Positions 4,766-43,416 of a stretch of 53,419 bases of DNA are shown in pieces; position 1 is the stretch's first letter; the number at the start of each line of letters is the position of its first letter. Position numbers and translations under genes: made by a program. Under the pieces are notes generated by a model. The model did not search any database. It was not told the origin of the DNA and saw only the letters and a program-made list of their open reading frames with translations. Origin of the DNA: a virus (taxonomy: Duplodnaviria; Caudoviricetes); the IMG/VR virus record IMGVR_UViG_3300050501_000354, positions 1 to 53,419 of that record. One strand, 5' to 3'.

Positions 4766-5008
4766 CTACTTTCCGCCGTTGCCATTTTCCTTGATGGTCA
4801 GCAAATCCCCCACATCGCAGTTGAAGTATTGACAAAAGGCGATGATGGTCTGTTCATCGAATGACGACACGCGCCCCTTGATCCACTTCAAAACCGTAGG
4901 TCTCGATAACCCCGTGGCATGCACAAGCGTCGTCGTGTCAACCGGGACACCTGTTTCAATCTGCTTCTTTGCCATTAGCTCAACAATGCGGGTTCTCACT
5001 TTTGCCAC
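4766..5008 (-). CDS. XRE/Cro-C1-type HTH repressor
   Basis: LVHATGLSRPTVLKW...FCQYFNCDVGDLL; divergent from early genes. Confidence 0.88.
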   Translation of the reverse strand: MAKVRTRIVELMAKKQIETGVPVDTTTLVHATGLSRPTVLKWIKGRVSSFDEQTIIAFCQYFNCDVGDLLTIKENGNGGK

Positions 5009-5027
5009 TCCCGTTTACCTTTCGTGT

Positions 5028-5038
5028 AGTGTAGCACA
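5028..5038 (-). promoter_or_regulatory. Extended -10 promoter of repressor
   Basis: TGTGCTACACT on minus strand, 20 nt upstream of start. Confidence 0.55.
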
Positions 5039-5082
5039 CCCGCTTATTAAAATCAACTACCGCTAATCTTTATTAGCGCCAC

Positions 5083-5112
5083 TTGACAGAAAAACATAGG
5101 CTGTATTATACT
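5083..5112 (+). promoter_or_regulatory. Sigma70-type rightward promoter
   Basis: TTGACA-N18-TATACT. Confidence 0.65.
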
Positions 5113-5342
5113 ACGGGTATGCTGCTTTAGAAACGTAAAATGTAGACTAACGCGAAGCACACTTTACGTCAACCAAACTCTAACGTTTCATTGCCCGAAC
5201 TGGAACACTCGCAATGCCCGTTTTTAGGAATCCGCTTTGCCAAAGGGGTGTAGACTTGAACCACTCGCATCCTTCATGGGGGAATCAAAAAGGCCAAGCC
5301 CGGCCTTCATACCGTTTTCACAAAAATCTAACCGCAATTGAA

Positions 5343-5372
5343 CTGACAATCGAACACGGTTTTCCGTATAAT
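5343..5372 (+). promoter_or_regulatory. Second rightward promoter
   Basis: CTGACA-N18-TATAAT in AT-rich intergenic DNA. Confidence 0.5.
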
Positions 5373-5561
5373 GTTGGAACAAGAGAATTAAGTAGCACAA
5401 TTATTAGAACACTAAAGGTCTATTTTAAGGTTCACGAATTTTGTAAATAAAAAAAGAGGCAGCCTGCTCCCGCCCCGGTCCATCAAACTAGTGCGAGAGT
5501 AAGCCGCCGCTACTACTACCCTCACCGCTTGACGTTGCGCACCGCTCCACAGTGAGGGTCA

Positions 5562-5607
5562 TGATTTCGCCCTAGAGGGGTATAGATCGCCTCCGGCGAC
5601 GAAATCA
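5562..5607 (+). repeat. Y-shaped palindromic element, family B
   Basis: TGATTTCG-CCCTAGAGGGG-TATAGA-TCGCCTCCGGCGA-CGAAATCA. Confidence 0.85.
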
Positions 5608-5781
5608 ACCAGGGTCGGTCGCCACCAGCCCACACAGCACACAAGACCACCCACGAACGCTTTCACATTCAGGAAGGTCGAGGACTATAGCCATGTGTTC
5701 AGGAATGCAGGTTTCGTACCCCGTAACTCACACTATATTCCCAATTCTTCCTTTACGCAAGAACCTCTATCAAAACGTATA

Positions 5782-5829
5782 CGATTTCGTCGGCCAAAGG
5801 CCGATCTATACCCCTCTGGGGCGAAATCG
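5782..5829 (-). repeat. Family B element, inverted orientation
   Basis: CGATTTCG...TATACCCCTCTGGGG-CGAAATCG. Confidence 0.85.
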
Positions 5830-5923
5830 AAAAGCGCTGCTCCGGGGAGGAGACAGGCGCTTTTGCTCACGTGAGAACAACCAGAGGAAAGGGGTACTTA
5901 TTGAATCCATCTCATTATAGCAC

Positions 5924-6004
5924 TGAACGGTCGCGACCGTTCACATTCGCCCGTAGGGACACGGCCCGCCTTGTCCTTGTAGGGGCGGACCCCCGTGTCC
6001 GCCC
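5924..6004. repeat. Family C palindrome followed by two GTAG-type REP-like hairpins
   Basis: TGAACGGTCGCGACCGTTCA; GTAGGGACA...TGTCC; GTAGGGGCGGAC...GTCCGCCC. Confidence 0.8.
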
Positions 6005-6024
6005 GCCTATCAAAGGAGCGTCCT

Positions 6025-6474
6025 TTGCCTACTAACAAATACAGACCCATCGGACAGAAACAATTGGAGCAGCTCATGGCACTCGACGCCGCCCGCCTGG
6101 AAGGTCGCGGCAGCCTCACCACCAACGACATCCCATACAATGCCTATGGCGTGAAAGGGTTGATGGCAAAGGGCTACATCGCTTCTTCCAACGGCGGCGG
6201 CTACCACATCACCGAAGCTGGCACGCGCGCCCTCATCAACCCTGACCAGCCCGTAAAGGTAAATGGCGCGGTCAAAATTAGCGGTGACCGCCCCTATACC
6301 CCCCCTATAGCCAAACCTGTAACCAACGGCCAAGCTGCGCCCTCCCCATGTTTGGGGAGGAATGGGGAGGGGTCTTGCCCCCACAAGCGCGTCCTCGAAA
6401 TCATCGCGCCCTACGTGCCCGAAGCCGCGCAACTGCTGGCGGCCCTCGAATCCATCGAACGGAGGGTTAAATGA
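6025..6474 (+). CDS. Hypothetical protein, possible winged-helix N-terminus
   Basis: TTG start after AAGGAG; LMAKGYI...YHITEAGTRAL pattern. Confidence 0.6.
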   Translation: MPTNKYRPIGQKQLEQLMALDAARLEGRGSLTTNDIPYNAYGVKGLMAKGYIASSNGGGYHITEAGTRALINPDQPVKVNGAVKISGDRPYTPPIAKPVTNGQAAPSPCLGRNGEGSCPHKRVLEIIAPYVPEAAQLLAALESIERRVK

Positions 6475-7076
6475 ACGAAGCGCCTGTCGAACTAACCACA
6501 CCGCCCAACGGGGAGGGGTTAAAACTCTACGACCCCGCCTACGTCAAAGCCCTCGAAGACCAGGTCGTCCTGCTCAAGATGCAGAACGGCATCGCCGCCC
6601 AGCTCCAGCCCGAACTGGAGAAGCTGCGCGCTGCGCTGCCCAGCACGGCTACCACCCGCAAACAGGTCTTCATGAACGAGGTGATGGCCGCCGATCTGGA
6701 GAAGCTGCTCAACGACGGCTACGAAAAGTGGCACGCTGAATTCAAGGGCAGCAAGCTCTACGTCGTCCTCGTCCGCGACATACCCGCCGAACCCACGCCC
6801 GACCCCGCAGGGGCGAGACATACCTCACCCGAAGCCGAGCCTTCGAAGCCTGCCGCGCGCCAGCCCGACGCCATCATTGACAACCTACCAGTAATCGAAG
6901 CCAGTCCACTTGAAAAAGAAATCCTTGGCGAGCCGGTCATGTCCGTCGCCGAGCGCTACATGGAAACGTCGCGGCAGCGCATCCAGACCGCCTTTCAACT
7001 CGGTTTCTCCCACACACTCCATCTACTCGATCACCAGCGGGCGCTCGTGCCCACCTTTGGAGGCGACTCATGGTAG
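6471..7076 (+). CDS. Hypothetical protein
   Basis: GGAGG SD, overlapping stop/start. Confidence 0.75.
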   Translation: MNEAPVELTTPPNGEGLKLYDPAYVKALEDQVVLLKMQNGIAAQLQPELEKLRAALPSTATTRKQVFMNEVMAADLEKLLNDGYEKWHAEFKGSKLYVVLVRDIPAEPTPDPAGARHTSPEAEPSKPAARQPDAIIDNLPVIEASPLEKEILGEPVMSVAERYMETSRQRIQTAFQLGFSHTLHLLDHQRALVPTFGGDSW

Positions 7077-7651
7077 CCATCATCCCCAAAGCGCCCAATG
7101 TCGCCCTCGAAGCGGAGGCACAAGCCTTCATCGCGCAGCACGTCAACACCAATACCGCGCTCACCCTTGGCGAAGTGCGCGCCTTCTTCTCCCGCATGAA
7201 CCAGGATGCCAAAGAGCGAGGCGATGAGCAGTCGCGCCTCTGGCTGCGCGACGCGTGGCAAAAAGTAAAAGGGCTAGCAGCCGAGAAAGATATCCTCAAC
7301 GCCGTTGCCGTCGGCGCGATCCTCGCCGAACGAGAAGCGGAACGCCAGCACCACGAACTCGCTCATGCGGTGCGCTACCAGGACGCCGGGCATCCGCTTG
7401 TCGGCGGGTTGATTCGCGGTGCGCATGGCGAGAATGAATACAACCGCCAGATTGACGCCTGGGACGGCGCGCGAGGTGATACGGTACTGGGCGTTCAGCG
7501 CATTTTGATGGAGACCTGTGGGCTGAACGAGCATGACGCCATTGCCTGGTCACGCCTGTTTGTCTACGGCGACGCCAGCTTTCTTCCGCCCGACGCCGCT
7601 GCTGCCATCGGCCAGGCCATGCGCCAGATTATGGAGACAGCCAATGTCTAG
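7070..7651 (+). CDS. Hypothetical protein
   Basis: GGAGG SD, operon packing. Confidence 0.75.
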   Translation: MVAIIPKAPNVALEAEAQAFIAQHVNTNTALTLGEVRAFFSRMNQDAKERGDEQSRLWLRDAWQKVKGLAAEKDILNAVAVGAILAEREAERQHHELAHAVRYQDAGHPLVGGLIRGAHGENEYNRQIDAWDGARGDTVLGVQRILMETCGLNEHDAIAWSRLFVYGDASFLPPDAAAAIGQAMRQIMETANV

Positions 7652-8009
7652 CCATGATTTTGTCGGCGATGAATTCCGTCGCCCGGATGGTTTCGCCCCA
7701 GAGGGGCATAGGTCGCCTCCGGCGACGAAACCAGATGCAGACCCGCAAGGCGGGCGGAATTCAGATATAGACCCGCCTCCCGGCGGGCAAAATCAAGCAC
7801 CCATTACCGGCCAGGGCGACGAGTTCTTCCACAAGCTGTCGGAATGGGAGATGTCCCAGCTTCGTAAGCTGCCCGCCGATTATTTCGGCGAGACGCAAAG
7901 CTGCACAGCCGTCGCCATCGAACCGGACATGGATACAGAACCTTATCCGCCGGACTATGACACGCGCCGGATATTACCCACGATCGTCGATTGCGAGGAG
8001 TGGGAATAA
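7644..8009 (+). CDS. Hypothetical protein whose N-terminal ~47 aa are encoded by nested palindromic elements
   Basis: ATG 7644 after GGAG; element 7655-7795 (141 bp) is in frame. Confidence 0.6.
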   Translation: MSSHDFVGDEFRRPDGFAPEGHRSPPATKPDADPQGGRNSDIDPPPGGQNQAPITGQGDEFFHKLSEWEMSQLRKLPADYFGETQSCTAVAIEPDMDTEPYPPDYDTRRILPTIVDCEEWE

Positions 8010-8030
8010 GAAAAGCCTCTTTCGAGGCCA

Positions 8031-8087
8031 TGATCGGTCGCGACCGATCAGTTGGGGCGGACAGACCTGGACGTGTGGCCCGCCCCT
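8031..8087. repeat. Family C palindrome plus REP-like hairpin
   Basis: TGATCGGTCGCGACCGATCA then GTTGGGGCGG...CCGCCCC. Confidence 0.75.
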
Positions 8088-8105
8088 TAATGAAAGGATA
8101 TTCCA

Positions 8106-8300
8106 ATGCCAGTATTTATTCAAGAAGGTGCACTCCTCTTGTATGACACCCGTATCAAATGGCACGGCTTCAAGTTTCCGCCCGAACGGGTCGAGGTGGT
8201 CAAGGTGGGGAAGAAGCGTGTGAAGATTGACCTCGATGGCCGCCATACCTGGGTTACGCCCAGGTATCTCTTTCCTATCGGTGGCCGCCGTGTGCACTGA
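8106..8300 (+). CDS. Small SH3/KOW-like hypothetical protein
   Basis: AAGGA SD; VEVVKVGKKRVKI...WVTP pattern. Confidence 0.6.
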   Translation: MPVFIQEGALLLYDTRIKWHGFKFPPERVEVVKVGKKRVKIDLDGRHTWVTPRYLFPIGGRRVH

Positions 8301-8496
8301 AAACGGACAAGCCACCCTCACGGAGTGTGCTGAGCGAGTCATGGAAGACTATCGCCGCATCGCCGCCTTCATCCGCGCCTATGAACCGGAGGACGAGGAC
8401 GTGCAGCGGGAGGCGCAGTCCGCCCTCAACCACCTGCGCATCGTCGCTGGCAAGCTCGCCTATCTCGCCGTCACGATGGATGCGAAAGGGGACTAA
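8290..8496 (+). CDS. Hypothetical protein
   Basis: GTG start overlapping upstream stop. Confidence 0.55.
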   Translation: MCTENGQATLTECAERVMEDYRRIAAFIRAYEPEDEDVQREAQSALNHLRIVAGKLAYLAVTMDAKGD

Positions 8497-8498
8497 CC

Positions 8499-8774
8499 AT
8501 GTCGAACCACAACGGAGAGGTGCTGCTGCCTACGAACGTTGTCCACGCCAACATCCTGTTTTACAACCGGCGCTGCGCGGCTACCTTCGTGCTATGCGAA
8601 AATGAAACTGGCTGGACGGTGCTTATGCTGTTCGGCGCCCACGAAGCCAGCGCGGTGCTGTCAGAGGGCACACCGCTGCCGCACGATGCTGCCCTGGTCG
8701 TCTTTCCTGAGCATGAGCGCGGCAACTACTACCGCGACGTCTCCTACCATGCTTCGATGAGCCGGAGACGCTGA
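8499..8774 (+). CDS. Hypothetical protein
   Basis: Operon packing, SD. Confidence 0.6.
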   Translation: MSNHNGEVLLPTNVVHANILFYNRRCAATFVLCENETGWTVLMLFGAHEASAVLSEGTPLPHDAALVVFPEHERGNYYRDVSYHASMSRRR

Positions 8775-8931
8775 CCATGCGCCCGTTTATGCGAGTCCTC
8801 GGCCTCTCTCCAGACAGCTTCCGCGCCCGCAAAGCGCATTACGTCCGCGCGTTCCTGCCCCCAAGGCTCAGGCATCGCCACCGTCGCCGTCGGCTGCACC
8901 AGTTGATCCGTGCTAACTTGAGGAGGTTGCC

Positions 8932-9375
8932 GTGAATCACCTCGCCCTCGACGCCCAATTGCACTTCCACCTCTCACGTATGAAGATCGGCGACACGGTT
9001 CTGTTTCAGGATTGGTGCATCACCCGCGCGCCGTCCCGCTTCAAGCTGAAGGGGGGCGACGCCCAATTCGACATGCCCCCTTGTGGCGGGGGGGTGCTGA
9101 ATACTGATTTCGCCCGGCTGCGCGCCATCTCGTGCATCGTCGCCCTCATCCTGGGCAGCGCCTTCGCCCCGGAATTGGCCTACGACAATGTAACGAGGAG
9201 CGGCCCGTCCTTCCAGGCATGGCATTATCACAACGACAGGGAAACTGATAGGCGCGGTTGGAGGCTCGCCGTCACCGCCGCCAGCCCCGACGACGCCCAT
9301 CTCGAATATCTCGCGTGGAAAACCCACGAGAGCAACATCTGGTTCAACTTTTCACGCAGCAGGAGGCGCGCGTGA
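8932..9375 (+). CDS. Hypothetical protein
   Basis: AGGAGG SD. Confidence 0.7.
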   Translation: MNHLALDAQLHFHLSRMKIGDTVLFQDWCITRAPSRFKLKGGDAQFDMPPCGGGVLNTDFARLRAISCIVALILGSAFAPELAYDNVTRSGPSFQAWHYHNDRETDRRGWRLAVTAASPDDAHLEYLAWKTHESNIWFNFSRSRRRA

Positions 9376-9710
9376 GTCTCTTCTCGCTCGACGCATTCCG
9401 CGCCCTGCGCGACGCCAACGGCCTGCGCGCCTACGCCGACTCGGTGTGGCGTCACCGCCAGCGGCTGGCTGGACTGCAAAACCCAGAGGAGCTGCGAGCA
9501 GGCTTCGCCGAGGAATGGGACAAAATCATTGCTGTGTTCGAGGCCGACCACGAGACGCGCGACATCCTGCTCAAGCGCCTGAAGCGCGAGGCCCGGGATG
9601 CCCTGTCCTTGCAGCGCGCGCTCATCCGCCACGAACAGGCCGAGATTGCGCGCGTCACCCTGCTGTATCGAGAACTGGAAGCCCATATGAAACAAAAGGA
9701 GATCGCATGA
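9372..9710 (+). CDS. Hypothetical coiled-coil protein
   Basis: GTG start after AGGAGG, GTGA overlap. Confidence 0.7.
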   Translation: MSLFSLDAFRALRDANGLRAYADSVWRHRQRLAGLQNPEELRAGFAEEWDKIIAVFEADHETRDILLKRLKREARDALSLQRALIRHEQAEIARVTLLYRELEAHMKQKEIA

Positions 9711-9907
9711 TTGTCTACCTGTACGGCCCCAATACCGTCACCGAAGTCAAAGAGGTCTGGCGGGGATCGCGCTACATACGCCTCCGCTACACCGAGATGG
9801 ACATCCATCACAATCCCATCCGCACCCGTTGGGTGATCGAGGAGATCGCACAGCCGGTGGTGAGCGTGCCGCTCGTTGGCAGCCGCGACGCGGGGTTCGG
9901 GCGATGA
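9707..9907 (+). CDS. Hypothetical protein
   Basis: ATGA overlaps on both sides, AAGGAG SD. Confidence 0.65.
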   Translation: MIVYLYGPNTVTEVKEVWRGSRYIRLRYTEMDIHHNPIRTRWVIEEIAQPVVSVPLVGSRDAGFGR

Positions 9908-11586
9908 GCACCGAACCCATTTCTATCGAACGTATTCACCGTGACGAGGCAATCCAGAGCCGTGTCGCCCTGCACGCCGAGACCGTGGCCGACTACGCGG
10001 ACGCCTACCGCGAGGGCAAGCTGCTGCCGCCCATTACGCTCTTCCACGAGTCGGGCAGCGGCAAACTCTGGCTCGCCGATGGTTGGCATCGCGTCGCGGC
10101 GGCTGAACAGGCTGGCATACCGCACATCCTGGCCGACGTGAAGCCGGGCGGCAGGCGAGATGCGCTGCTCTGTTCGGTAGGCGCGAACGCGACACATGGC
10201 CTGCGCCGGACGAACGCCGACAAGCGCCGGGCAGTGGAATTGCTGCTCAAAGATTCAGAACTCGTCAAGATGTCAGACCGGGAAATCGCGCGCTACTGTT
10301 GTGTATCACATCCATTCGTCTCAAGCGTCCGCTCAACTGGTAACGCTTACCAGTCCAGCAAACGAACCGGAGCGGACGGCAAAACGCGCGCCGTCAAACA
10401 TTGGGGTCTATCCAACGGGATGCCCTTCTGGACGCAGGTCGAGAAGTTCAATCTCGACAAGTCCACGATCATGGAGCGGCTTCAGCCAGGCGCAAAGGTG
10501 CTTACCGATCTCGCGGCCAGCAAAGAGGACACCTGGCGCCGTCTCGATCAGCTCGCCTGCGAAGCGAACACGGGACGCTACCCGGCAGACAGCTACGCGC
10601 TGAACAAAGCGATTGACACCTATGGGCGCGTGATGCAGGCTCATTCGACGACTCTGCGTGTGACGAGCCTGGCAACCGGTATTGAGGGGACATGGCTGGT
10701 CAAGGATTGTAAGCCCGGGACCGAAGATGGTTATCAGGCGTGGCGCAAGGATTATCATCTCGCCGATACAAAGCCTGCTGATAACCTCGACATGGCCGCC
10801 ATCAACGCCGATCTCGATAAAGAACTCGCCACCCTCCCACCGCATCTGCCGGTGAAGCCCGCGTCGGACGTTGAGATGAAATCAACCGCTCCAACTCCGT
10901 CCGCCAAACTTGAGGTCGGCGACACTGTGCGCAACATCCACACGAACCAGGGCGGCCCCATCGTCGGCTTCGTCGGCGACGCCGCCCAGGTCGAGACCGC
11001 CAACGGCGTCCGTCCCATCAAGCGCGCCTATCTGGAGCGCATCGAACCAACGAACAACGGCGGTGTAGGGGAGCACCCCCGTGTGCTCCCGCCCGACACG
11101 CCGCCCGCCCCGCCCACCAGTCCTAAAGGGGATAGCGAAACGCCCTCCGCCCTCGACGCCATCGCCCCCCGTCCCTGGGTGGTCACGAAGGGGCCGGATC
11201 GCTTCCATATCTCCGACCGGAAGGGCCAGAATCTCGCGTTCGCCTACTACAGCGGCGGCATCGGCAGCGACGTGGCCTACGCCATCACCCGCGCCGTCAA
11301 CGCCCACCGCGACTACACGACGGCTCAGGTGCGCGACCTCCTGCCTGCGCTGCGCCGCATTCTCGACTTCGCCGATGGCCTGACGAAGGACGTACCCGAC
11401 ACGATCACCGAGGACATCTTCGACGTGCAGGCCTTCCTCGGCCACCTGCGCCACACCATTGCTAAAGGGGAGCAACCGGATCATCCTGCCCGCGAAGCGG
11501 GTATAGATCTAAACTCCATCGCCGGAGGCGACCTTGTCCGCTTCGCGGATGGAATTGACCGGCGACAGGATCAAGTCGCGCCATGA
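9904..11586 (+). CDS. ParB/Srx-like N-terminal domain + HTH multidomain phage protein
   Basis: LPPITLF...LADGWHRVAA...NATHGLRRTNADKRRAV...SDREIARYCCVSHPFV. Confidence 0.85.
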   Translation: MSTEPISIERIHRDEAIQSRVALHAETVADYADAYREGKLLPPITLFHESGSGKLWLADGWHRVAAAEQAGIPHILADVKPGGRRDALLCSVGANATHGLRRTNADKRRAVELLLKDSELVKMSDREIARYCCVSHPFVSSVRSTGNAYQSSKRTGADGKTRAVKHWGLSNGMPFWTQVEKFNLDKSTIMERLQPGAKVLTDLAASKEDTWRRLDQLACEANTGRYPADSYALNKAIDTYGRVMQAHSTTLRVTSLATGIEGTWLVKDCKPGTEDGYQAWRKDYHLADTKPADNLDMAAINADLDKELATLPPHLPVKPASDVEMKSTAPTPSAKLEVGDTVRNIHTNQGGPIVGFVGDAAQVETANGVRPIKRAYLERIEPTNNGGVGEHPRVLPPDTPPAPPTSPKGDSETPSALDAIAPRPWVVTKGPDRFHISDRKGQNLAFAYYSGGIGSDVAYAITRAVNAHRDYTTAQVRDLLPALRRILDFADGLTKDVPDTITEDIFDVQAFLGHLRHTIAKGEQPDHPAREAGIDLNSIAGGDLVRFADGIDRRQDQVAP

Positions 11587-11783
11587 TCGCAGATCGCTTC
11601 ACCCGAATGCTCGTCGGCGCGCACGAAGGCTGTCGGCGTAACCCCACCGTCGAAGGCATCCACATGCACTACGCGCTGGTGCTCCTGGCCTCGGCACGCC
11701 TGCACAACCTGGGCGGGGTCTACCGGAGAGCGGATTGCCTTCCCTACACCCGCGTCGTCTGGCCGAGGGGCCAACGGACATGA
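11583..11783 (+). CDS. Hypothetical protein
   Basis: ATGA overlaps. Confidence 0.5.
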   Translation: MIADRFTRMLVGAHEGCRRNPTVEGIHMHYALVLLASARLHNLGGVYRRADCLPYTRVVWPRGQRT

Positions 11784-11986
11784 GAGCCAGGCGCTACGGA
11801 CTCCGGGACGCCACCCCGAACGCGCCCCCTGTACACGACCCCATAGGCCGCCAGCACCGGATTCCGCGTGGCGAGGATGAGGTCTGCATCCACCCGCGCC
11901 GGGCGATCAAATGGAATCGCTTCAACAACGTTTATCAGTGCTGCATCTGCGGGCACATTCTCTACGATGAGGAGTACGACGAATGA
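11780..11986 (+). CDS. Small Zn-ribbon-like protein
   Basis: CIH...QCCICGH; ATGA overlaps. Confidence 0.55.
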   Translation: MRARRYGLRDATPNAPPVHDPIGRQHRIPRGEDEVCIHPRRAIKWNRFNNVYQCCICGHILYDEEYDE

Positions 11987-12582
11987 AAACTGAATACCCC
12001 TTCGGCTCCTTCGCCTGGCAGCGCGAGCAGAAAGAAAAGGTGGTCGCACTCGCCCGCGAGCTGTCCGCCGGGCAGTTCGTGCTCTTCGACACCGAGACCA
12101 CTGGTTTTAATTCCAGCGACGAAATCATCTCTATCGCCATCATTGACCAGCGCGGCGCAGTCCTGCTCGACACGCTCATCCGCCCCAACCAGGCGATCAC
12201 TAACAGCGACCGGCACGGCATCACCGACGAAAGGGTGGCCGCTGCTCCCACCTTCCCGCAGGTCTACCCCTCCATCCGCGAGTCGCTGGACGGCAAGCTC
12301 GTGCTCGCCTACAACGCGAATTACGACTGGCGAATGCTCGACGCCAGTTGTGACCGGCACAAGCTGCCGCGCATCGTGCCTCTGGCCTACGAGTGCATCA
12401 TGGAACTGTACGCCACCTGGTGGGGCGACTGGAACGATTATCACGAGAGTTTTCGGTGGCAGAAGCTCACAACGGCCTGCCAGCGCTTCGGCATTGACGT
12501 GGGGCAGGAGCACCGGGCGCTCGACGACTGCAAGAGCGCGCTGGGCGTACTGAAGGCGATAGGGGAGGGGAAGAGTGGTTAG
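11983..12582 (+). CDS. DEDDh 3'-5' exonuclease (DnaQ/epsilon-like)
   Basis: FDTETTG, YNANYD, HRALDD motifs. Confidence 0.93.
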   Translation: MKTEYPFGSFAWQREQKEKVVALARELSAGQFVLFDTETTGFNSSDEIISIAIIDQRGAVLLDTLIRPNQAITNSDRHGITDERVAAAPTFPQVYPSIRESLDGKLVLAYNANYDWRMLDASCDRHKLPRIVPLAYECIMELYATWWGDWNDYHESFRWQKLTTACQRFGIDVGQEHRALDDCKSALGVLKAIGEGKSG

Positions 12583-12583
12583 A

Positions 12584-12784
12584 CTAAGCCGGTTCTTTGA
12601 CCAGCTTGATTTTGCCGTCGGCGATGTCCTGGAGGAGTCGGGTGGGTTTACCGTCGGCGAGTTGTTCAGCCAGGTCAACGAGCATCGCAATGCGGCGCTC
12701 TCGGATCTCGCCTTTGCCGAGGTAAAACGACACCGGCGGGTCTTTCGGATACTGTTTTTGGTTTTTACGAGGTGTCTTTTCCAT
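12584..12784 (-). CDS. Small basic protein, possible RHH-like regulator, predicted leaderless
   Basis: ATG 12784 lies 7 nt after the -10 of a TTGACA-N18-TATACT promoter (12791-12820). Confidence 0.6.
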   Translation of the reverse strand: MEKTPRKNQKQYPKDPPVSFYLGKGEIRERRIAMLVDLAEQLADGKPTRLLQDIADGKIKLVKEPA

Positions 12785-12790
12785 GCTTCT

Positions 12791-12867
12791 AGTATAAGAA
12801 ATTCTGTACAGACTTGTCAAGTTTACAAGCGTACAAGTTTGACACCTTCTATTAGAAGTCTTATAAT
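12791..12867. promoter_or_regulatory. Back-to-back sigma70 promoters
   Basis: Minus: TTGACA(12820-12815)/TATACT(12796-12791); plus: perfect TTGACA(12839-12844)-N17-TATAAT(12862-12867). Confidence 0.8.
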
Positions 12868-12907
12868 AGAAGTATGAAACGAACGTTCTAGCGCGAGGTC
12901 TCATAGC

Positions 12908-13603
12908 ATGGCGATGACAATTGGCTACACCTTCGGGGACTACACCTTCCAGATGCACTACGGTTTGCTGTCTGGTGATGGAGTTGTGATTGATCCCCGA
13001 TATGAAGTGGAGATGCCCGGTTTTCTGGAAGCGCTGAAGAAGGCGATTGACCTATATCCCCTTGTTGGACTATCGTGCCATTTCGAGGAATATGCCTCGT
13101 CTTATGCCAGTATGGATAAGCGAGCACTAAATCGGCATTTGTCCAACTGGGAAGATGATGATCTCAAAATGCTACTTGAGGGGTCTGAACTCAAGCGAAC
13201 GCACGCCGCATTTAAGGATTTGGATTTCAGCGAGGCGGATGAGGCTTATACGGCGGCGCTGCTGGCCGAGGTAGAACGACGAGAACAAAAAGCCTTGCTG
13301 GATGAATCTAAACGCGCTAAACAACTGGAACGGGAGCAAAAAGCCTATCCTGGCTATGTTTATCTAATTCAATCTCCTACGGGTGCTTACAAGATTGGGC
13401 GCACAAAGAACCCCGATGACAGGATGAAAACATTTGGGATTCAACTTCCCTTTGAGGTTCAGTTTGTGCATCTTATTGAGACCGCGAATATGTACAAATT
13501 GGAGCGGTCATTGCATAAAAAATTCTCCTCCAAGCGAGTAAATGGCGAGTGGTTCCAGCTTGTGCCAGAAGACATCGAATTCATAAAAGGGATTACTTCA
13601 TGA
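12908..13603 (+). CDS. T5orf172/MUG113 GIY-YIG-like nuclease domain protein
   Basis: GYVYLI...YKIGRT...LERSLHKKF...RVNGEWF. Confidence 0.9.
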   Translation: MAMTIGYTFGDYTFQMHYGLLSGDGVVIDPRYEVEMPGFLEALKKAIDLYPLVGLSCHFEEYASSYASMDKRALNRHLSNWEDDDLKMLLEGSELKRTHAAFKDLDFSEADEAYTAALLAEVERREQKALLDESKRAKQLEREQKAYPGYVYLIQSPTGAYKIGRTKNPDDRMKTFGIQLPFEVQFVHLIETANMYKLERSLHKKFSSKRVNGEWFQLVPEDIEFIKGITS

Positions 13604-14616
13604 GCATAAAAGCCATGACTTATGTCTGGGCGCGTTCGAAGCAAAAAGGCAGCGCCCTGGTCATGATGCTGGCAATTGCCGACATGGCAAATGACGACGG
13701 CGACTGCTGGCCGGGCGTTGGTACACTGGCAAAGAAGACCCGGATGAGTGAGCGTAATGCCCAGAAACTCATCCGCAAACTTGAGGCGGCCGGTGAGGTC
13801 ATTGTCCACCAGGGCGACGGCGTGGAAACGGCGCATGGCAACACGAATCGCTACACACTTATCATGCCCACCGAGGTGAACGCGGTGACACCCCAGAGGC
13901 GTCAGAGGCGACACCCCAGGGGTGAACGCGGTGACACCCCAGAGGCGTCAGAGGCGACACCCCAGGGGGTGAACGCGGTGACACCGAATCCCACAGTATT
14001 TGAACCTTCAGTTGAACCGTCAGTTGAACCGTCATCGTCTTCGGATAGTCAAGAATCATCATCTTCATCCCCACCGACGATGACGACGATTGACCGTAAA
14101 GAACCAACCCCAGAATCACCTGTGCTAAAAAACACGGCGCCAACCCAAAGGCAGATTGACGCCTGGACCGCTGCCTACGGCCAGCTTGAAATTCAGCTTG
14201 ATCGCTTCAGCTTCGAGACCTGGCTTCGAGGTGGGAAACTGCTTGGCATGGACGGCGAGGTGTGGGTAATCGGTGTTAAGAATAACTATGCGAAAGACAT
14301 GTGCCAGCACCGGCTCTACCGCAATATCCGCCGCGTGCTTGGCGATTGCCTGGGGGAGTCGGTAGAATTGCGCTTCGAAGCGCTGCCAGTCAGCCCACTC
14401 AAGGCTGACGAGGACATGGCATTATGGGCGCTGGTAGACGAGGCGGCGCAGGCGTTCAAGCCGCCGGGGGAGAAGCCGCTGACGATGGACGATGCGCGAA
14501 CAATCGCCAAATCCTGGGGCGCTGACGACGTGAACAAATACGCTGCGAAGGTGTTCCAGGGCTGGATTGAGTCGGGGAAAGTGGTGGCTCAGCCAGCAGG
14601 GGAGGGCATAGTTTGA
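13600..14616 (+). CDS. Replication initiator: N-terminal HTH_36-like domain, iteron linker, DnaA domain-I-like C-terminal part
   Basis: LAIADMANDDGDCWPGVGTLAKKTRMSERNAQ; FSFETWL...IGVKNNYAKDMCQHRLYRNIRRVL. Confidence 0.85.
   Translation: MSIKAMTYVWARSKQKGSALVMMLAIADMANDDGDCWPGVGTLAKKTRMSERNAQKLIRKLEAAGEVIVHQGDGVETAHGNTNRYTLIMPTEVNAVTPQRRQRRHPRGERGDTPEASEATPQGVNAVTPNPTVFEPSVEPSVEPSSSSDSQESSSSSPPTMTTIDRKEPTPESPVLKNTAPTQRQIDAWTAAYGQLEIQLDRFSFETWLRGGKLLGMDGEVWVIGVKNNYAKDMCQHRLYRNIRRVLGDCLGESVELRFEALPVSPLKADEDMALWALVDEAAQAFKPPGEKPLTMDDARTIAKSWGADDVNKYAAKVFQGWIESGKVVAQPAGEGIV
13875..14034. repeat. Iteron array / probable origin inside the initiator gene
   Basis: 46- and 47-bp tandem units plus a partial third (GACACC cores), followed by three 12-bp TTGAACC(T/G)TCA repeats. 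Confidence 0.75.
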
Positions 14617-16310: not shown

Positions 16311-16649
16311 GTGTCTTCAGTCATCACTCTAACACCATACGACGCCAAACGTCAACCCCTCCCCGACCTTGGCGAAGGCGCGACGGTGGTCATCACTGCC
16401 AGCTACTACGGCAGCCGCGCCAACACCCTCACCGCTTGCATCGAGCAGGTGAAGCCTTTCACGAGTGCGACACATGACCCCGTCGCGACGGGGCATGGCT
16501 ACACCGACACCCTCTACGGCGTTCGCACCGCCGCCGGTTACAAAGTCATGTTCAGCGCCGAACTCAAGCGCCGCCTCGTGGCGTACTTGATTTCGTCGCC
16601 GAAGGCGATATTGACCCGCTCCGCGGGCGAAATCAGGGGGCAGTCATGA
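16311..16649 (+). CDS. Hypothetical protein
   Basis: GAAAGG SD, first gene after promoter. Confidence 0.65.
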   Translation: MSSVITLTPYDAKRQPLPDLGEGATVVITASYYGSRANTLTACIEQVKPFTSATHDPVATGHGYTDTLYGVRTAAGYKVMFSAELKRRLVAYLISSPKAILTRSAGEIRGQS

Positions 16650-18106: not shown

Positions 18107-18189
18107 TGAACGGTCGCTGACTGGTCGCGACCAGTCAGCTCAGCTCTGCACTGCGCGGAGTAGGGGAGGGTTTCAAGCCCTCCCTTTTT
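18107..18189. repeat. Nested family C palindromes plus GTAG REP-like hairpin/terminator at the convergence of early and late arms
   Basis: TGACTGGTCGCGACCAGTCA inside TGAAC...GCTCA; GTAGGGGAGGG-TTTCAAG-CCCTCCC-TTTTT. Confidence 0.75.
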
Positions 18190-18478: not shown

Positions 18479-19296
18479 CAGTCATCCGCCTTGATAAACG
18501 TTCGCCGTCGTCCAAGTGAAGTAAAGGTACTTCTCCGCCCGTCCAGTTCGCCCGTCCGCCGCCGCCCGCCCGACACAAACACGTCCTCGGCGATGATAAA
18601 CGCGCCACCTGTCACCACCAGATCATACAACGCACTGCCGTCGGCCAGGAAGGGCAGGGAGATGGACGCCGCGCTCTGGATAAGGGTGAAATTGTACAGC
18701 GCGCTTGAGTCGCCCAGGAAGGAGAGTGCAATCGTTTCGTTGACCTGGAAGGCATAGAGCGCCGAGGAGTCGGCCAGGAAACTCAGATGAACGTTCTGGT
18801 TGACCTGGAAGGCATAGAGCGCGCTTGAGTCGGCCAAAAACGCGAGTGCAATCGTTTCGTTGACCTGGAACGCATACAGCGCGCTCGTGTCGCCGAGAAA
18901 ATCAAGGCTGATCGTTTGCGCGCCGGCCTGGGAGACCACGAAGGCGTACAGCGCCGACGAGTCGCCGAGAAAGGACAGCGGAATCGTCTGGTTGATCTGG
19001 AATGCATAGAGCGCGCTGCTGTCCGCCAGGAAGGCGAGCGCAATTGTTTCGTTGACCTGGAAGGTGTAGAGCGCCGAGGAGTCGGCCAAAAACGCGAGTG
19101 CAATCGTCTGGTTGACCTGGAACGCATAGAGCGCACTGCTGTCGCTGAGAAAGGACAGCGATACCGTAACCGCCCCGGTCGTGAGAGTCGGTGCATACAG
19201 CGCCGAGCTGTCGGCCAGGAAGTCCAGGCTGACGGAGAGACCGGAGAGCTGCCGGGCCCCGCCCGGCAGGAGTGGTTGATAAACCCACCCGCTCAC
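18478..19296 (-). CDS. Putative virion fibre protein with ten ~20-aa repeats
   Basis: Repeated LxFLxDSSALYxFQVNxT units. Confidence 0.7.
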   Translation of the reverse strand: MSGWVYQPLLPGGARQLSGLSVSLDFLADSSALYAPTLTTGAVTVSLSFLSDSSALYAFQVNQTIALAFLADSSALYTFQVNETIALAFLADSSALYAFQINQTIPLSFLGDSSALYAFVVSQAGAQTISLDFLGDTSALYAFQVNETIALAFLADSSALYAFQVNQNVHLSFLADSSALYAFQVNETIALSFLGDSSALYNFTLIQSAASISLPFLADGSALYDLVVTGGAFIIAEDVFVSGGRRRTGELDGRRSTFTSLGRRRTFIKADD

Positions 19297-20726: not shown

Positions 20727-20947
20727 TCTCCTTTTGATTGAACGCGTCGCGACGGTTCAGATAGCGGGTCGCGACCCGTCATGCCATTCGGAAGGAAGCG
20801 GATGAGAATGAGCCATCCCAGCAGCGCGATGAGGATGGCCCCGGCGTGCGTCACCGGCGGTGGGATGAAAATCGCGCCCAGCAGCCCACCTGCCATACAA
20901 ATCACCCAATACACATAAAAGTACCGCTTGCGCATGATTCCCCTCAT
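20723..20947 (-). CDS. Small 2-TM membrane protein
   Basis: Two hydrophobic helices. Confidence 0.6.
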   Translation of the reverse strand: MRGIMRKRYFYVYWVICMAGGLLGAIFIPPPVTHAGAILIALLGWLILIRFLPNGMTGRDPLSEPSRRVQSKGD

Positions 20948-21945: not shown

Positions 21946-22569
21946 TCAGGCCGCCTTCACCTGCATCTGGAAACCCGGCTGCTTCGACTGGTGCGCCAGG
22001 TTGTAGACTGCGTGCGCGCCCAGTCCCGTCACAATCGTCACCGGCAGCAAAGGCTGGAAGGCTTTCAGCACGCTTTCCACGACTTGCAGCACGTCGCGGT
22101 ACTGCTGCCCGTAGCCCAGTTGGTTGGTGACGACGTGGCCGACCCAGAACACGACCTGCACGGCCAGCGCCAGCGCCGCCGGGGAAATCCAGTATTTTTG
22201 TGGCAGCAGCCTCGTCATGGCGACCTTGAGAATTTGCGTGATGATCAGCACCAGCGACGCCGCATAGGCCACGCGGGTGATGGTGTCGAGCGCGTTCAGC
22301 AAATAGTCACCCGCTTCATCAGGAGTCGCGGGCGGTTCTTCGTCATGCACATCCGGTTCGTCTGTCACGTGAATTCCATCGCCGGAGGCGACCGTGTCCG
22401 CTTCGCGGATGGAATTCAGCTCGACGACCGGCGCTTCGTCCACCGTCGGCACGGGCGTGTTGGTCACCAACTCTCGCGTCGGCGTGGCGTCGTCCTGCGC
22501 GGCCAGGACATAGCCGTTGAGCAGCAGAACGACGATGGGGATCAGGATGATCCGTTGAAACTGAGTCAT
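21946..22569 (-). CDS. Membrane protein, holin candidate
   Basis: N-terminal hydrophobic segment plus ~3 TM segments; follows lysin candidate. Confidence 0.6.
   Translation of the reverse strand: MTQFQRIILIPIVVLLLNGYVLAAQDDATPTRELVTNTPVPTVDEAPVVELNSIREADTVASGDGIHVTDEPDVHDEEPPATPDEAGDYLLNALDTITRVAYAASLVLIITQILKVAMTRLLPQKYWISPAALALAVQVVFWVGHVVTNQLGYGQQYRDVLQVVESVLKAFQPLLPVTIVTGLGAHAVYNLAHQSKQPGFQMQVKAA
22370..22418. repeat. Family A Y-shaped element inside CDS
   Basis: TGAATTCCATC-GCCGGAGGC-GACCGTGT-CCGCTTCGCG-GATGGAATTCA. Confidence 0.9.
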
Positions 22570-24439: not shown

Positions 24440-25183
24440 TTACCTCAACAGATCAAATATATTGGGCACGTTCTGCGGATGCTGCCCGGCCAGGAGCGCC
24501 GCCGCAATCGCCGCGCCTGTGCCCAACAACCCCAGCCAGAAGCGCCAGTCGTGCAGCACGGCCCAACCGCCGGTGACGACCTTGCGGAACGCCTCGACCA
24601 TGCGCGTCTCCCACAACTGACGCCGTTCCATGTAGCGTTCGAGCGGCTCAACCCGCTTCACCAGACTGCTTTGCGCGTTCATCAATTCCGTGTGCTTGCT
24701 GTCCCGATCCAGATCCTGGGCGTCCAGCCGCTCGAACAGCGACGGGTTGCCGCTGCGCTCCTCCGGGTTGCCGTGTATGGTGTTGCGCAGCGTGGTGATC
24801 TCCGACGACAGCAGGGCGTGCCGCTGTGCCAGCGCCGCCAGCCCATTCTCGGGGTGATTCACCACGGCTTCCATGCCGTCCAGCCGCTCCTCGTGGGCCT
24901 CCATGCGCGACTTAATGCTGCCCAGCGCGCCGTTGATGTCGGAAATTTTGGTAAAGATCTGTGCCAGATGGGTTTCAATCGTCCGGGTGGTCAGGTCAAT
25001 CGTGTTCATGAGCGGGTAGCTCTGCGACACCCACCGTTCCTGCACCATCTGGGAGAGCAGGGGGCGCAGCGTTTCCAGCGTTGGCGCGTCGGCCATCGCT
25101 TTGCGCACTTCCGCCTGCGCCACCTCGCGTGCGATGTCGCGGGCTTCGACTGCGGTCACTGGCACGGTTGTGGGTTCGTTCAC
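24440..25183 (-). CDS. Coiled-coil protein with C-terminal TM (lysis-associated?)
   Basis: Heptad pattern, WRFWLGLLGTGAAIAAALLA; first gene after the 25201 promoter. Confidence 0.65.
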   Translation of the reverse strand: MNEPTTVPVTAVEARDIAREVAQAEVRKAMADAPTLETLRPLLSQMVQERWVSQSYPLMNTIDLTTRTIETHLAQIFTKISDINGALGSIKSRMEAHEERLDGMEAVVNHPENGLAALAQRHALLSSEITTLRNTIHGNPEERSGNPSLFERLDAQDLDRDSKHTELMNAQSSLVKRVEPLERYMERRQLWETRMVEAFRKVVTGGWAVLHDWRFWLGLLGTGAAIAAALLAGQHPQNVPNIFDLLR

Positions 25184-30054: not shown

Positions 30055-30413
30055 GTGGCCGACATCCGGTTCACATAGCCGCCGATCATGACCACATTGC
30101 CCGTCGCCGCGAACGCGCGCACGACCAGGCTGTTCTGCAAAATCAACCCTGGCACGACCAGCACCAGCCCCGACTCGGCGGGAATGGTGATTTCAATCAG
30201 GTCGTCGGGTGACGTCGTGCCGCCGAACTCAATGGTCAGCTTGCGGTTGACCGTATCGGAGTTGACGGCATACAGCCAGATTTCGTCGTAGTTGTCCGCA
30301 CCTGTGGCCGCCTGCGCCGTGTGGATGAGCGTGCCCGCCGACGCCGTTTGCACCACCTTAATCATGCGCCCATCGGTGGAGCCGGAGAGTTCGATTTTGC
30401 TAAAGGTTGCCAT
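30051..30413 (-). CDS. Putative tail fibre-associated protein
   Basis: Beta-rich 120-aa ORF between fibre genes. Confidence 0.65.
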   Translation of the reverse strand: MATFSKIELSGSTDGRMIKVVQTASAGTLIHTAQAATGADNYDEIWLYAVNSDTVNRKLTIEFGGTTSPDDLIEITIPAESGLVLVVPGLILQNSLVVRAFAATGNVVMIGGYVNRMSAT

Positions 30414-39124: not shown

Positions 39125-39294
39125 CACAGAGTCTCCCTGAACATGCGCCAGCGTAGCCGCAATCGCGCTGGATACCGCTTGATGGTGTACAGCCACCCAA
39201 TCCAGGGGCGAGCACGAACGAGATACCCATGTTCCACAGGCGTCCACTTCGACCAGAGCGGATGATAGAATCGGGTGTACAGGGATATTTTCAT
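39121..39294 (-). CDS. Small hypothetical protein
   Basis: Overlaps both neighbours. Confidence 0.4.
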   Translation of the reverse strand: MKISLYTRFYHPLWSKWTPVEHGYLVRARPWIGWLYTIKRYPARLRLRWRMFRETLW

Positions 39295-39920
39295 AGCAGC
39301 CGCCCGCCTTCCACCCACTCGTGGGGCAGTCGCTTCCCCTTCTTCGCATTGCAAACAGGGCACGAAATCACGATGTTGGAGGCGTCATTCCAGCCATCTC
39401 TAATCAGTGGTACGACATGCTCCACATGGAATTCTTTGCCGAGCTTGCAGTGTCCACAAGCGGCATAGTAACAGCGCCCTTTCTGGCGCTTCAGTTGTGC
39501 TTGAATGTCGTCGACGGTGTGCTTGCCGGGGGCAGCGCATAACTTTGAGCGGCGATTACTGTTAATGACTTTAATAATCTCAGGATGCTTTTCACGGTAA
39601 CGACGTACTCGCTCCGCTTGCTGTTCACGATGCTTTGGTGCGTACTCTCGCATATATGCACGCTTTTCTTCAGCGTGTTCATTTTGCCAGCGCTTATTCG
39701 CTTCCTGCTGTCGTTCTGGATTGTTCATTCGCCAGACACGACTATTCTCCCGTGATTTTTCTGGGTTATTTTTTCGCCACTCACAGGATTTTGCCTTGTT
39801 ACAGGTTTTGCACACTCCGTTCAATCCATCGTTCGCCCTTTTGTTGCCATGAAAATACGCCGTCGTCGCCGGGAACTCCTGCTTGCACTTGCTGCACTCC
39901 TTCATCCGCTCGTCAGTCAT
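39291..39920 (-). CDS. HNH homing-type endonuclease
   Basis: CSKC/CKTC Zn motifs; HVEHVVPL...NIVISCPVCNAKK; lower GC. Confidence 0.9.
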   Translation of the reverse strand: MTDERMKECSKCKQEFPATTAYFHGNKRANDGLNGVCKTCNKAKSCEWRKNNPEKSRENSRVWRMNNPERQQEANKRWQNEHAEEKRAYMREYAPKHREQQAERVRRYREKHPEIIKVINSNRRSKLCAAPGKHTVDDIQAQLKRQKGRCYYAACGHCKLGKEFHVEHVVPLIRDGWNDASNIVISCPVCNAKKGKRLPHEWVEGGRLL

Positions 39921-40389
39921 TGCTACCGCTTTCGAGCAGCCGCTTATCCTGCTCCCACCGCTCAATCGCCGCTCGGATGGCCGCCACCGGCTGCTGGCCG
40001 AAACCGACATACTCGACACGGCTCCAGTTTGGCTCTGGGATGATGATAATTTGAAGCCGCGCTAGCCACAGTCCCTTCGCTCTTTCCAGTTGACATTCGA
40101 TAGTTTCCGGCAGGCTGTTGAGCATATCGTTGAAAGTGATCTCGTGGGGGCCCGTCATTGCGCCGCTGCCTTGCCAATCCTTACCGTGCTCACGCAACAC
40201 CTGTAGCCGTTCCACAATGTCCTCACATGCGTGACCGAGCGCCCAGGACGGCGTATCTTCAGCGACAGCAATCGGCACATTGGCATACTGCACATCAGGA
40301 ATATCGGACGTTACAGCGAGCCACAGGCCAGGCTTTGCCTCGTCAATAGTGATGGTCACGGTAATGCTCACTCGTTCCGCTCCAGCCAC
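39913..40389 (-). CDS. Hypothetical protein
   Basis: Overlaps neighbours. Confidence 0.55.
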   Translation of the reverse strand: MAGAERVSITVTITIDEAKPGLWLAVTSDIPDVQYANVPIAVAEDTPSWALGHACEDIVERLQVLREHGKDWQGSGAMTGPHEITFNDMLNSLPETIECQLERAKGLWLARLQIIIIPEPNWSRVEYVGFGQQPVAAIRAAIERWEQDKRLLESGSND

Positions 40390-42852: not shown

Positions 42853-42902
42853 TTAATTTTGTCGGCGAAGCCGATCTATACCCGCTCCGCGGGCAAAATT
42901 AA
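42853..42902. repeat. Family B-variant Y-shaped element
   Basis: TTAATTTTG-TCGGCGAAGCCGA-TCTATA-CCCGCTCCGCGGG-CAAAATTAA. Confidence 0.8.
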
Positions 42903-43363: not shown

Positions 43364-43409
43364 TGATTTCGCCCCAGAGGGGCATAGGTCGGCTCCGCCG
43401 ACGAAATCA
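43364..43409. repeat. Family B element
   Basis: TGATTTCG-CCCCAGAGGGG-CATAGG-TCGGCTCCGCCGA-CGAAATCA. Confidence 0.85.
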
Positions 43410-43416
43410 GACGAAA

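Follow-up and report, generated by a model that had tools for sequence, protein, structure and literature searches.

Introduction

Rickettsia RPEs are described as short palindromic repeats without a transposase of their own that lie in frame in unrelated genes and are translated (PMC10969869). REPINs, as they are presented in PMC3116915 (also PMC3333891, PMC1525189), are non-autonomous inverted hairpin doublets that can adopt a long-hairpin or 'clover' fold and that insert into or beside each other. Here we report a family of very small palindromic repeats in a phage genome, the IMG/VR virus record IMGVR_UViG_3300050501_000354, which we analysed over its entire length of 53,419 nt (hereafter the window; the record is rated complete). 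The locus of interest is a block at positions 7655–7795, in which three of these repeats are nested inside one another within the open reading frame (ORF) 7644–8009. On balance we favour the view that the block consists of three nested members of a family of miniature, non-autonomous, structure-dependent mobile elements, placed at the 5′ end of a conserved gene. Our confidence in this view is only moderate, since mobility is judged from one genome and from protein-level empty alleles, with no gain or loss observed. The repeats have the appearance of very small mobile DNA elements, and for phages this kind appears not to have been described before.

By analogy, the RPEs are the closest described system in behaviour and the REPINs are the closest in architecture. 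Measured against the published description of RPEs, the phage elements are likewise inserted in frame into unrelated ORFs (five here) and are likewise absent from homologues (0 of 6 for ORF 7644). RPEs, however, are about 150 bp long, reside on a bacterial chromosome and encode a conserved peptide, whereas the phage elements are 46–52 nt long, form a three-way junction and nest at a fixed position, and we treat the relation as an analogy only. With REPINs the phage elements share two short inverted palindromes and a possible hairpin or clover fold, but REPINs are extragenic, about 100 nt long, present in hundreds of copies and flank a RAYT gene, whereas 10 of the 14 phage copies are intragenic and the phage has no RAYT (Y1) gene. 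REPs carry a conserved GTAG foot, which is not seen in the phage elements, whose spacer reads (C/T)ATAG(G/A).

The SDRs of Nostocaceae, which Elhai et al. are said to have described in 2008, are reportedly about 20–30 nt long and insert into each other. By description only, the likeness is that of very small mobile repeats inserting at palindromic sites; the SDRs are cyanobacterial chromosomal repeats. For one of them, SDR5, the HIP1 palindrome has been reported as the insertion site (PMC5861425). With MITEs, as characterized in PMC10969869, the phage elements share terminal inverted repeats and a small size; both also occur in many copies, code for nothing themselves and are occasionally fused in frame to genes. 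They differ from MITEs in that 0 of 8 non-nested intact copies has a target-site duplication, the nested copies showing a loss of about 4 nt instead, in that no parent insertion sequence with the same ends was found in the phage, and in that they are as small as the smallest usual MITEs or smaller. Fungal mitochondrial double-hairpin elements and GC clusters are also short and mobile, have two hairpins and can sit in frame in genes; they differ in being organellar and eukaryotic. Because defining features of MITEs (target-site duplication, parent insertion sequence) and of REP/RAYT systems (extragenic location, cognate RAYT) were not found, we file the phage family under miniature palindromic mobile repeats, among which its phage host, very small size, three-way-junction fold and hairpin-specific nesting are unusual.

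Three concentric elements at 7655–7795

An earlier note on this DNA had described the block as a triple nest of palindromic elements, and its three concentric inverted-repeat pairs were recovered at the same coordinates. The outer pair, TGATTTTG(7655)/CAAAATCA(7795), extends to 13 nt with 85% complementarity, and the middle pair, TGAATTCCG(7670)/CGGAATTCA(7763), and the inner pair, TGGTTTCG(7688)/CGAAACCA(7733), are perfect over 9 and 8 nt, respectively. When folded as single-stranded DNA (ssDNA), the stretch 7650–7800 forms three concentric three-way junctions at −40.9 kcal/mol (z = −5.6), a stability that none of 200 shuffles equals.

Each layer was then compared with a free-standing copy of the repeat, any nested insert being removed before alignment and the best of 200 shuffles serving as the control in each case. 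The inner layer (7688–7733) matches 43364–43409 at 42 of 46 positions (score 38; best shuffle 9.5). The outer layer, with the middle one removed, matches 42854–42901 at 40 of 51 positions (score 28; best shuffle 7.5), and this alignment has a single gap, of exactly 4 nt, at the insertion point. The middle layer, with the inner one removed, matches 22370–22418 at 38 of 53 positions (score 21.5; best shuffle 8.5). With every layer aligning to free-standing copies above the shuffles, the triple nest of one repeat family is confirmed. Nesting is also found beyond this block: in a second nest at 11483–11571, the outer element at 11483, with its insert removed, matches the reverse of 42854–42901 at 34 of 48 positions (score 18; best shuffle 9.0).

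Two Logan contigs carry the block with 0 differences, one of 13,073 nt from run X1 that spans 5000–13904 and one of 470 nt from run X8 that spans 7577–8046. Run X1 may be the source sample, and X8 is an independent run. Since the block is identical in contigs of two runs, it is not an artefact of one assembler. Contig breaks at 7757 in run X5 were considered as a sign of variation and were rejected as repeat-induced.

Insertion into a conserved gene

The block is 141 nt, or 47 codons, long and is stop-free in the frame of ORF 7644–8009. The ATG of this ORF overlaps the stop codon of the upstream gene, with GGAGA located 8 nt upstream, and there is no in-frame ATG, GTG or TTG inside the block. 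The G+C contents at the first, second and third codon positions (GC1/2/3) are 0.60/0.43/0.71 after the block; GC3 is 0.59 and 0.42 in the other two frames and 0.51 in the block itself. Because coding-type GC3 begins directly after the block and no in-frame start lies within it, the block must be translated, in agreement with the earlier proposal that it keeps the frame of the ORF.

We searched for homologues with HMMER over 1.84 billion representative proteins and then with a profile search. HMMER returned four homologues of ORF 7644 (E 6.5e-19 to 3.3e-08), aligned only to residues ~43–119, and the profile search added two, giving six in total with lengths of 65–95 aa. The 47-residue block is present in none of the six. 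Their N-termini read MSS, MSA, MST or M, followed by 0–21 residues and then by AP(T/I)TGQG; two more distant homologues begin at the conserved helix. Deletion of 7655–7795 from the window yields MSSQAPITGQGDEFF and restores MSSQAPITGQG. The absence of the block from all six homologues, together with the restored N-terminus, leads us to conclude that the block is an insertion, and judging from these sequences the homologues represent its empty allele at the protein level. Orthologues that all carry the block, which the earlier note had named as evidence against insertion, are therefore not what is found at the protein level.

The identical ORF 7644 protein is recorded on 6 contigs. Alignment of the homologues against IMG/VR yielded no locus, the protein 7070–7648 has no relative in IMG/VR, and a word-index protein search with ORF 7644 returned only itself; as HMMER later found homologues of ORF 7644, the word-index nulls are weak evidence. 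In a structure model of ORF 7644, which is weak evidence owing to a shallow alignment, residues 1–50 are without secondary structure (pLDDT 50–59), the conserved part has a helix, and residues 51–80 have a pLDDT of 71–85.

One homologue, P0003, contains a 21-residue linker (residues 4–24) between MSS and APITGQG that ends in GGVNP. The window's counterpart of this GGVNP is GGQNQ, which is encoded by the 3′ end of the outer element. From this correspondence, the linker might be a decayed single element in a relative.

Architecture and copies of the repeat family

The family was built by enumerating inverted repeats and then aligning them. It comprises 14 copies in the genome, of which 11 are intact and three are split by a nested copy (the outer and middle elements at 7655–7795 and the outer element at 11483–11571; Table 1). 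In a common orientation, the layout is an AT-rich outer stem of 8–9 bp, a CCC(C/GC)-NNN-(G/GC)GGG hairpin, a spacer close to TATAGA or CATAGG, a TCGSC-NNN-GSCGA hairpin and the closing stem. The hairpins are GC-rich, each with a 5-bp stem and a 3-nt loop. Terminal inverted repeats of 8–9 bp are present in all 14 copies, and TGA...TCA ends in 10 of them. The 11 intact copies have a mean column identity of 73%. Families A and B and the 42853 type, which had been regarded as separate in the earlier note, align as one family, within which we speak of A-type and B-type copies.

A covariance model built on the 11 intact copies scores them at 56–70 bits and the rest of the window at no more than 13 bits; because it was trained on the same 11 copies, the model shows exclusivity and not independent discovery. 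A 28-nt core occurs at five sites with 0–3 mismatches, and the reversed control gave 0 matches. Pairing is kept in 95.6% of cells, compared with 29–49% in slid controls, and in 94.4% of cells of the outer helix. Of the 19 pairs, 8 change on both sides, and the covariation score was reached by none of 500 shuffles. The scarcity of G-T pairs (2 of 180 cells) and the score of 27–50 bits for the reverse strand of each copy lead us to infer a DNA-palindrome symmetry rather than a one-stranded RNA motif. The two mini-hairpins are mirror-related, with a GNA-type loop on one strand in the first and on the other strand in the second, and a three-way junction can form from either strand of the element. 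The joined outer stems might be read as parS-like by motif; we rejected this reading as unconvincing.

Table 1. Coordinates of the nested block, of the other repeat copies and of selected genes in the window
Feature	Position	Strand	Details
Complete nested block, three concentric elements	7655–7795	+	residues 4–51 of ORF 7644–8009
Outer element, left part	7655–7669	+	stem TGATTTTG, 5′ arm and 2 loop bases of TCGGC hairpin; aligns to 42854–42901
Outer element, right part	7764–7795	+	GA, spacer TATAGA, hairpin CCCGCC-TCCC-GGCGGG, stem CAAAATCA
Middle element, left part	7670–7687	+	stem TGAATTCCG, TCGCC arm and loop; aligns to 22370–22418
Middle element, right part	7734–7763	+	GA, spacer TGCAGA, hairpin CCCGC-AAG-GCGGG, stem CGGAATTCA
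Inner element, intact family-B copy	7688–7733	+	covariance model 65.7 bits
Host ORF, 121 aa	7644–8009	+	conserved part residues ~52–119
Free-standing B-type copy, intergenic	5562–5607	+	alignment, covariance model
Free-standing B-type copy, intergenic	5782–5829	-	alignment, covariance model
Second nest: outer element split in TCGSC hairpin by A-type copy 11510–11558 (minus)	11483–11571	+	residues 552–581 of 585, ParB-like protein
Copy at C-terminus of ORF 16311–16649	16588–16635	-	residues 93–109 of 112
A-type copy in ORF 21946–22569	22370–22418	-	residues 51–67 of 207
Free-standing copy between two head-module genes	42853–42902	-	abuts ribosome-binding site of gene 41711–42841
Free-standing B-type copy, intergenic	43364–43409	+	7 nt after stop of gene 43417–44541
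A-type copy in ORF 50948–51583	51063–51111	-	
A-type copy in ORF 50948–51583, identical to 51063–51111	51180–51228	-	within 117-nt tandem duplication
B-type copy in ORF 50948–51583	51276–51324	-	element frame (DFAPEGHRS) same as inner copy at 7688
Candidate trans-acting nuclease, T5orf172/MUG113 domain (GIY-YIG-like)	12908–13603	+	also matches 'homing endonuclease' PHROGs
Candidate trans-acting nuclease, HNH endonuclease	39291–40019	-	
Large terminase	49038–50405		
Small terminase	50402–50932		

Position of the nested copies

In all three nests, the insert lies within the TCGSC hairpin, 2 nt from the base of one arm. Read with its TCGSC hairpin first, the recipient keeps the 5′ arm and part or all of the loop; the insert follows, and after it come no more than the final two bases (GA) of the 3′ arm and then the spacer. 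About 4 nt of the recipient are missing in each case (two nests at 7655–7795, one at 11483–11571). In the fold, the inserted element replaces the TCGSC hairpin as one branch of the junction. The position common to all three nests points to a structure-directed insertion site or target preference. The elements make up 1.24% of the genome, and under uniform insertion the probability that at least 3 of 13 insertions fall in element DNA is 5e-4.

Copies within coding sequence

Ten of the 14 copies lie within five ORFs, in line with the earlier proposal that the elements build new protein sequence, and four are intergenic; both orientations are present. All ten coding copies are located at protein termini or in acidic linkers, the three copies of ORF 50948–51583 forming three segments in its acidic C-terminal half. 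Four of the six frames are open in most copies, so in-frame survival is not improbable.

Translated copies of one type recur as the same peptide in ORFs that are otherwise unrelated. A 19-residue A-type peptide, VELNSIREADTVA(S/A)GDGIH, is common to ORF 21946–22569 and ORF 50948–51583 and differs between them only at the S/A position. The B-type peptide reads DFAPEGHRS in ORF 50948–51583 and GFAPEGHRS in ORF 7644–8009 (TGG for TGA), in the same element frame. A protein search with ORF 50948–51583, in which 8000 candidates were scored, found only the window's ORF 21946, solely through the common element peptide. In tblastn searches, only the N-terminal part of the ParB-like protein was matched, in three records, and ORF 21946 had no match.

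ORF 50948–51583 also contains a 117-nt (39-codon) tandem duplication at 51028–51262, with one identical A-type element in each unit.

Search for copies outside the phage

In IMG/VR, five pattern scans gave 0 true matches; near-identical records may be hidden from such scans, and exact patterns miss diverged copies. The B-core pattern had 0 matches in IMG/VR. Among 185,579 species genomes it had two, which lie in ordinary coding DNA and are not surrounded by an element, and in JGI metagenomes two, both in one Pseudomonas-type gene; these matches, in a Pseudomonas-type gene or a MAG, are put down to chance. An A-type 21-mer and two hairpin-spacer patterns had 0 matches. A hairpin-plus-stem pattern hit seven loci in IMG/VR, all weak in the covariance model, with the best at 20.4 bits and with 19 nt fixed by the pattern itself; the best two of the seven (L014 and L016) were considered as copies and read as chance. 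No match to the block was obtained by blastn against phage and plasmid collections. The nearest phage relatives by large terminase (L010 and L011, 67–69% identity) have no element according to the covariance model and no orthologue of the element-bearing ORFs.

Rfam gave 0 matches at the gathering score over the whole window, and in 7600–7850 the sole match at E ≤ 1 was a CRISPR repeat model with 17.4 bits against a gathering score of 39. A limited literature search found no description of the family. The suggestion of the earlier note that this is not a described family therefore agrees with Rfam, with the phage and plasmid collections and with that limited search.

Some contigs were examined as foreign copies. 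A 10,825-nt X1 contig resembling 16586–16633 (8 differences) most likely carries the phage's own 42853 copy, and a 102-nt contig of double depth is the collapsed pair 51063/51180; both were rejected. One X1 contig of low depth (3.15) has an A-like stem with different inner letters and may, as a hint only, be a copy in another genome.

The L010 record (G001) contains three identical 13-nt GC hairpins, at 18481–18493, 24972–24984 and 30093–30105. They match only the first mini-hairpin of the model, at 11.5 bits each, and are probably ordinary terminator-like hairpins.

Candidate enzymes

The Y1_Tnp profile PF01797 had 0 matches at E ≤ 1 in the phage, while its control was positive in 10 of 14 genomes. 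Among the phage's own products are two candidate trans-acting nucleases, a T5orf172/MUG113 protein and an HNH protein (Table 1), whose link to the elements is conjectural. The earlier note took a host enzyme to be implied. This conclusion is not warranted: no transposase family was found in six frames, but the phage itself encodes GIY-YIG-like, HNH and ParB-like proteins.

Two stretches of lower G+C and low GC3, 12001–14000 and 39291–40389, hold the T5orf172/MUG113 and HNH genes. Such a composition is typical of free-standing homing-endonuclease-like genes that were acquired separately.

Mobile elements, repair products or fixed sites

If the repeats are mobile, copies would spread by means of a nuclease or transposase that acts in trans and recognises the folded hairpins, and this enzyme might come from the host or from the phage itself, as the T5orf172/GIY-YIG-like or the HNH protein. 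Hairpins of copies already in place would then be a preferred target for the next copy. Within genes, the survivors would be insertions that keep the frame and avoid the TGA frame in tolerant termini or linkers, and they would be translated as hydrophilic, probably disordered peptides. A more detailed version of this scheme can be offered only tentatively: the phage-borne elements of about 48 nt would be a hitherto unknown class and would move purely via the folded three-way junction, a nuclease, perhaps the T5orf172/GIY-YIG-like or HNH protein of the phage, would cut at the fixed TCGSC position, copies would themselves become preferred targets, each layer would replace a hairpin of the layer outside it while the fold is kept, and new terminal or linker peptides would result.

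Several results weigh against mobility. No empty site, excision footprint or polymorphism was seen at the DNA level; the block is identical in the X1 and X8 contigs that span it. No true copy was found outside the phage by seven pattern scans, blastn, Rfam and the covariance model on the two nearest relatives; the earlier note had itself counted such an outcome against its proposal, and here the objection stands. A six-frame search of the phage, with every control positive, revealed no Y1/RAYT, TnpB, rve, DDE_Tnp_1, resolvase or tyrosine integrase. The two nuclease genes do not border on any element, nor are they flanked by half-elements. The eight non-nested intact copies have no target-site duplication and no common flanking motif. 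Palindrome covariation can come from hairpin-templated repair and not only from selection for mobility. Finally, the excess of nests could reflect survivorship, a tolerated linker being a safe landing place, but survivorship does not explain the common position of the nests. Three events bear on the claim that the elements preferentially insert into each other; their common position speaks for a target preference, whereas the excess as such could be due to survivorship.

An unlikely alternative is that the repeats spread without a dedicated enzyme, by recombination, gene conversion or template switching between hairpin-forming repeats. A stalled fork or a break at an extruded hairpin would be repaired from another copy, so pasting the element into the hairpin. 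The three nests, each in a hairpin arm with a deletion of about 4 nt, look as expected for breakage and repair, and such a process would agree with the lack of target-site duplications and of a transposase. The 117-nt tandem duplication carries a copy, and next to the 57-nt identity block of ORF 21946 and ORF 50948 lies acidic-linker sequence with weak similarity. The non-nested copies, however, have unrelated flanks, which offer no homology that could template a conversion, and in all 11 intact copies the insert is bounded by the ends of its terminal inverted repeat, as would be expected of a defined mobile unit more than of random repair tracts.

We likewise consider it improbable that the phage uses the elements as functional cis-acting sites and came to have many of them by need. 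They would serve as structured binding sites for a phage protein, as single-strand initiation or priming signals made up of stable GNA-loop mini-hairpins, or as hairpins for mRNA processing or stability, with the coding copies evolved or recruited in place. For such sites speaks the conservation of the hairpin sequences TCGSC...GSCGA and CCCGC...GCGGG, which is far higher than that of the outer stems, and the location of 10 of the 11 TCGSC-N3-4-GSCGA motifs of the genome within elements. GNA loops closed by C:G are frequent, and the exact heptamer GCGAAGC, which PMC13037366 describes as an extraordinarily stable DNA mini-hairpin found at priming sites of ssDNA phages and plasmids, occurs in six element hairpins. 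In addition, a head-module gene has an intergenic copy on either side, one of which touches a ribosome-binding site, and the phage encodes ParA and ParB-like proteins. Yet 10 of the 14 copies lie in ORFs and point both with and against transcription, the triple nest at one site serves no obvious binding geometry, and the outer stems vary with compensation, unlike a sequence-specific site for duplex binding. The homologues of ORF 7644 without the block argue for arrival by insertion and not for evolution in place. A role as cis-acting sites is compatible with mobility, because mobile elements are often co-opted.

That short inverted repeats came together by chance in GC-rich DNA, or that the assembly is at fault, deserves practically no credence: inverted repeats of 8 nt are indeed common (the window has 166 maximal pairs with loops of 20–150 nt), but this explanation is refuted by the fold, by the alignment of every layer to free-standing copies far above shuffles, by covariance-model matches confined to the family and by the identical contigs of two runs.

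Should mobility prove correct, the phage would have been invaded by one of the smallest known mobile DNAs, with most copies expressed as protein, and would offer a compact system for the movement of hairpin-only elements, their target choice and the seeding of new peptide segments. The fixed nesting site and the 4-nt loss would be a mechanistic clue, suggesting that a mini-hairpin is cut in one of its arms. Phage annotation is affected as well: the inserts give rise to N- or C-termini that look 'novel' but are spurious, and to strong secondary structure near start codons. If the elements were fixed functional sites instead, they would be an unusual dispersed structured motif, still of interest but more ordinary.

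Genome setting and further repeats

The record occurs almost entirely in eight rhizosphere metagenome runs. Besides the two terminase subunits (Table 1), the gene set includes a portal and a tape-measure protein, ParA together with two ParB-like proteins, and a glycosylation cluster. Among cultured phages, actinophages have the closest large terminases (~44% identity).

The two ends of the record (1–379 and 53035–53419) are ~90% similar over ~380 nt, and a unit of ~100 nt occurs three times, at 104–204, 738–838 and 53138–53244. The end similarity looks like tandem paralogous genes across a circular junction rather than an exact terminal repeat.

At 43410–43421, the last 10 nt of the copy 43364–43409 are nearly repeated directly after it (GACGAAATCA, then GACGAAATTA). 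Here the end of the element is duplicated in tandem over a short stretch, which overlaps the stop codon of gene 43417–44541.

The window also contains a second palindrome family, TGA-N4-GTCGCGAC-N4-TCA, with perfect members of 20–24 bp at 5924–5943, 8031–8050, 18116–18139 and 51647–51666 and near-copies at 16478–16493 and 20765–20778. Perfect palindromes of at least 14 nt number eight in the window, no more than in shuffles (2–10); it is the common core GTCGCGAC that is striking. The N4 arms vary with compensation, and one copy lies 22 nt 3′ of the ORF 7644 stop codon.

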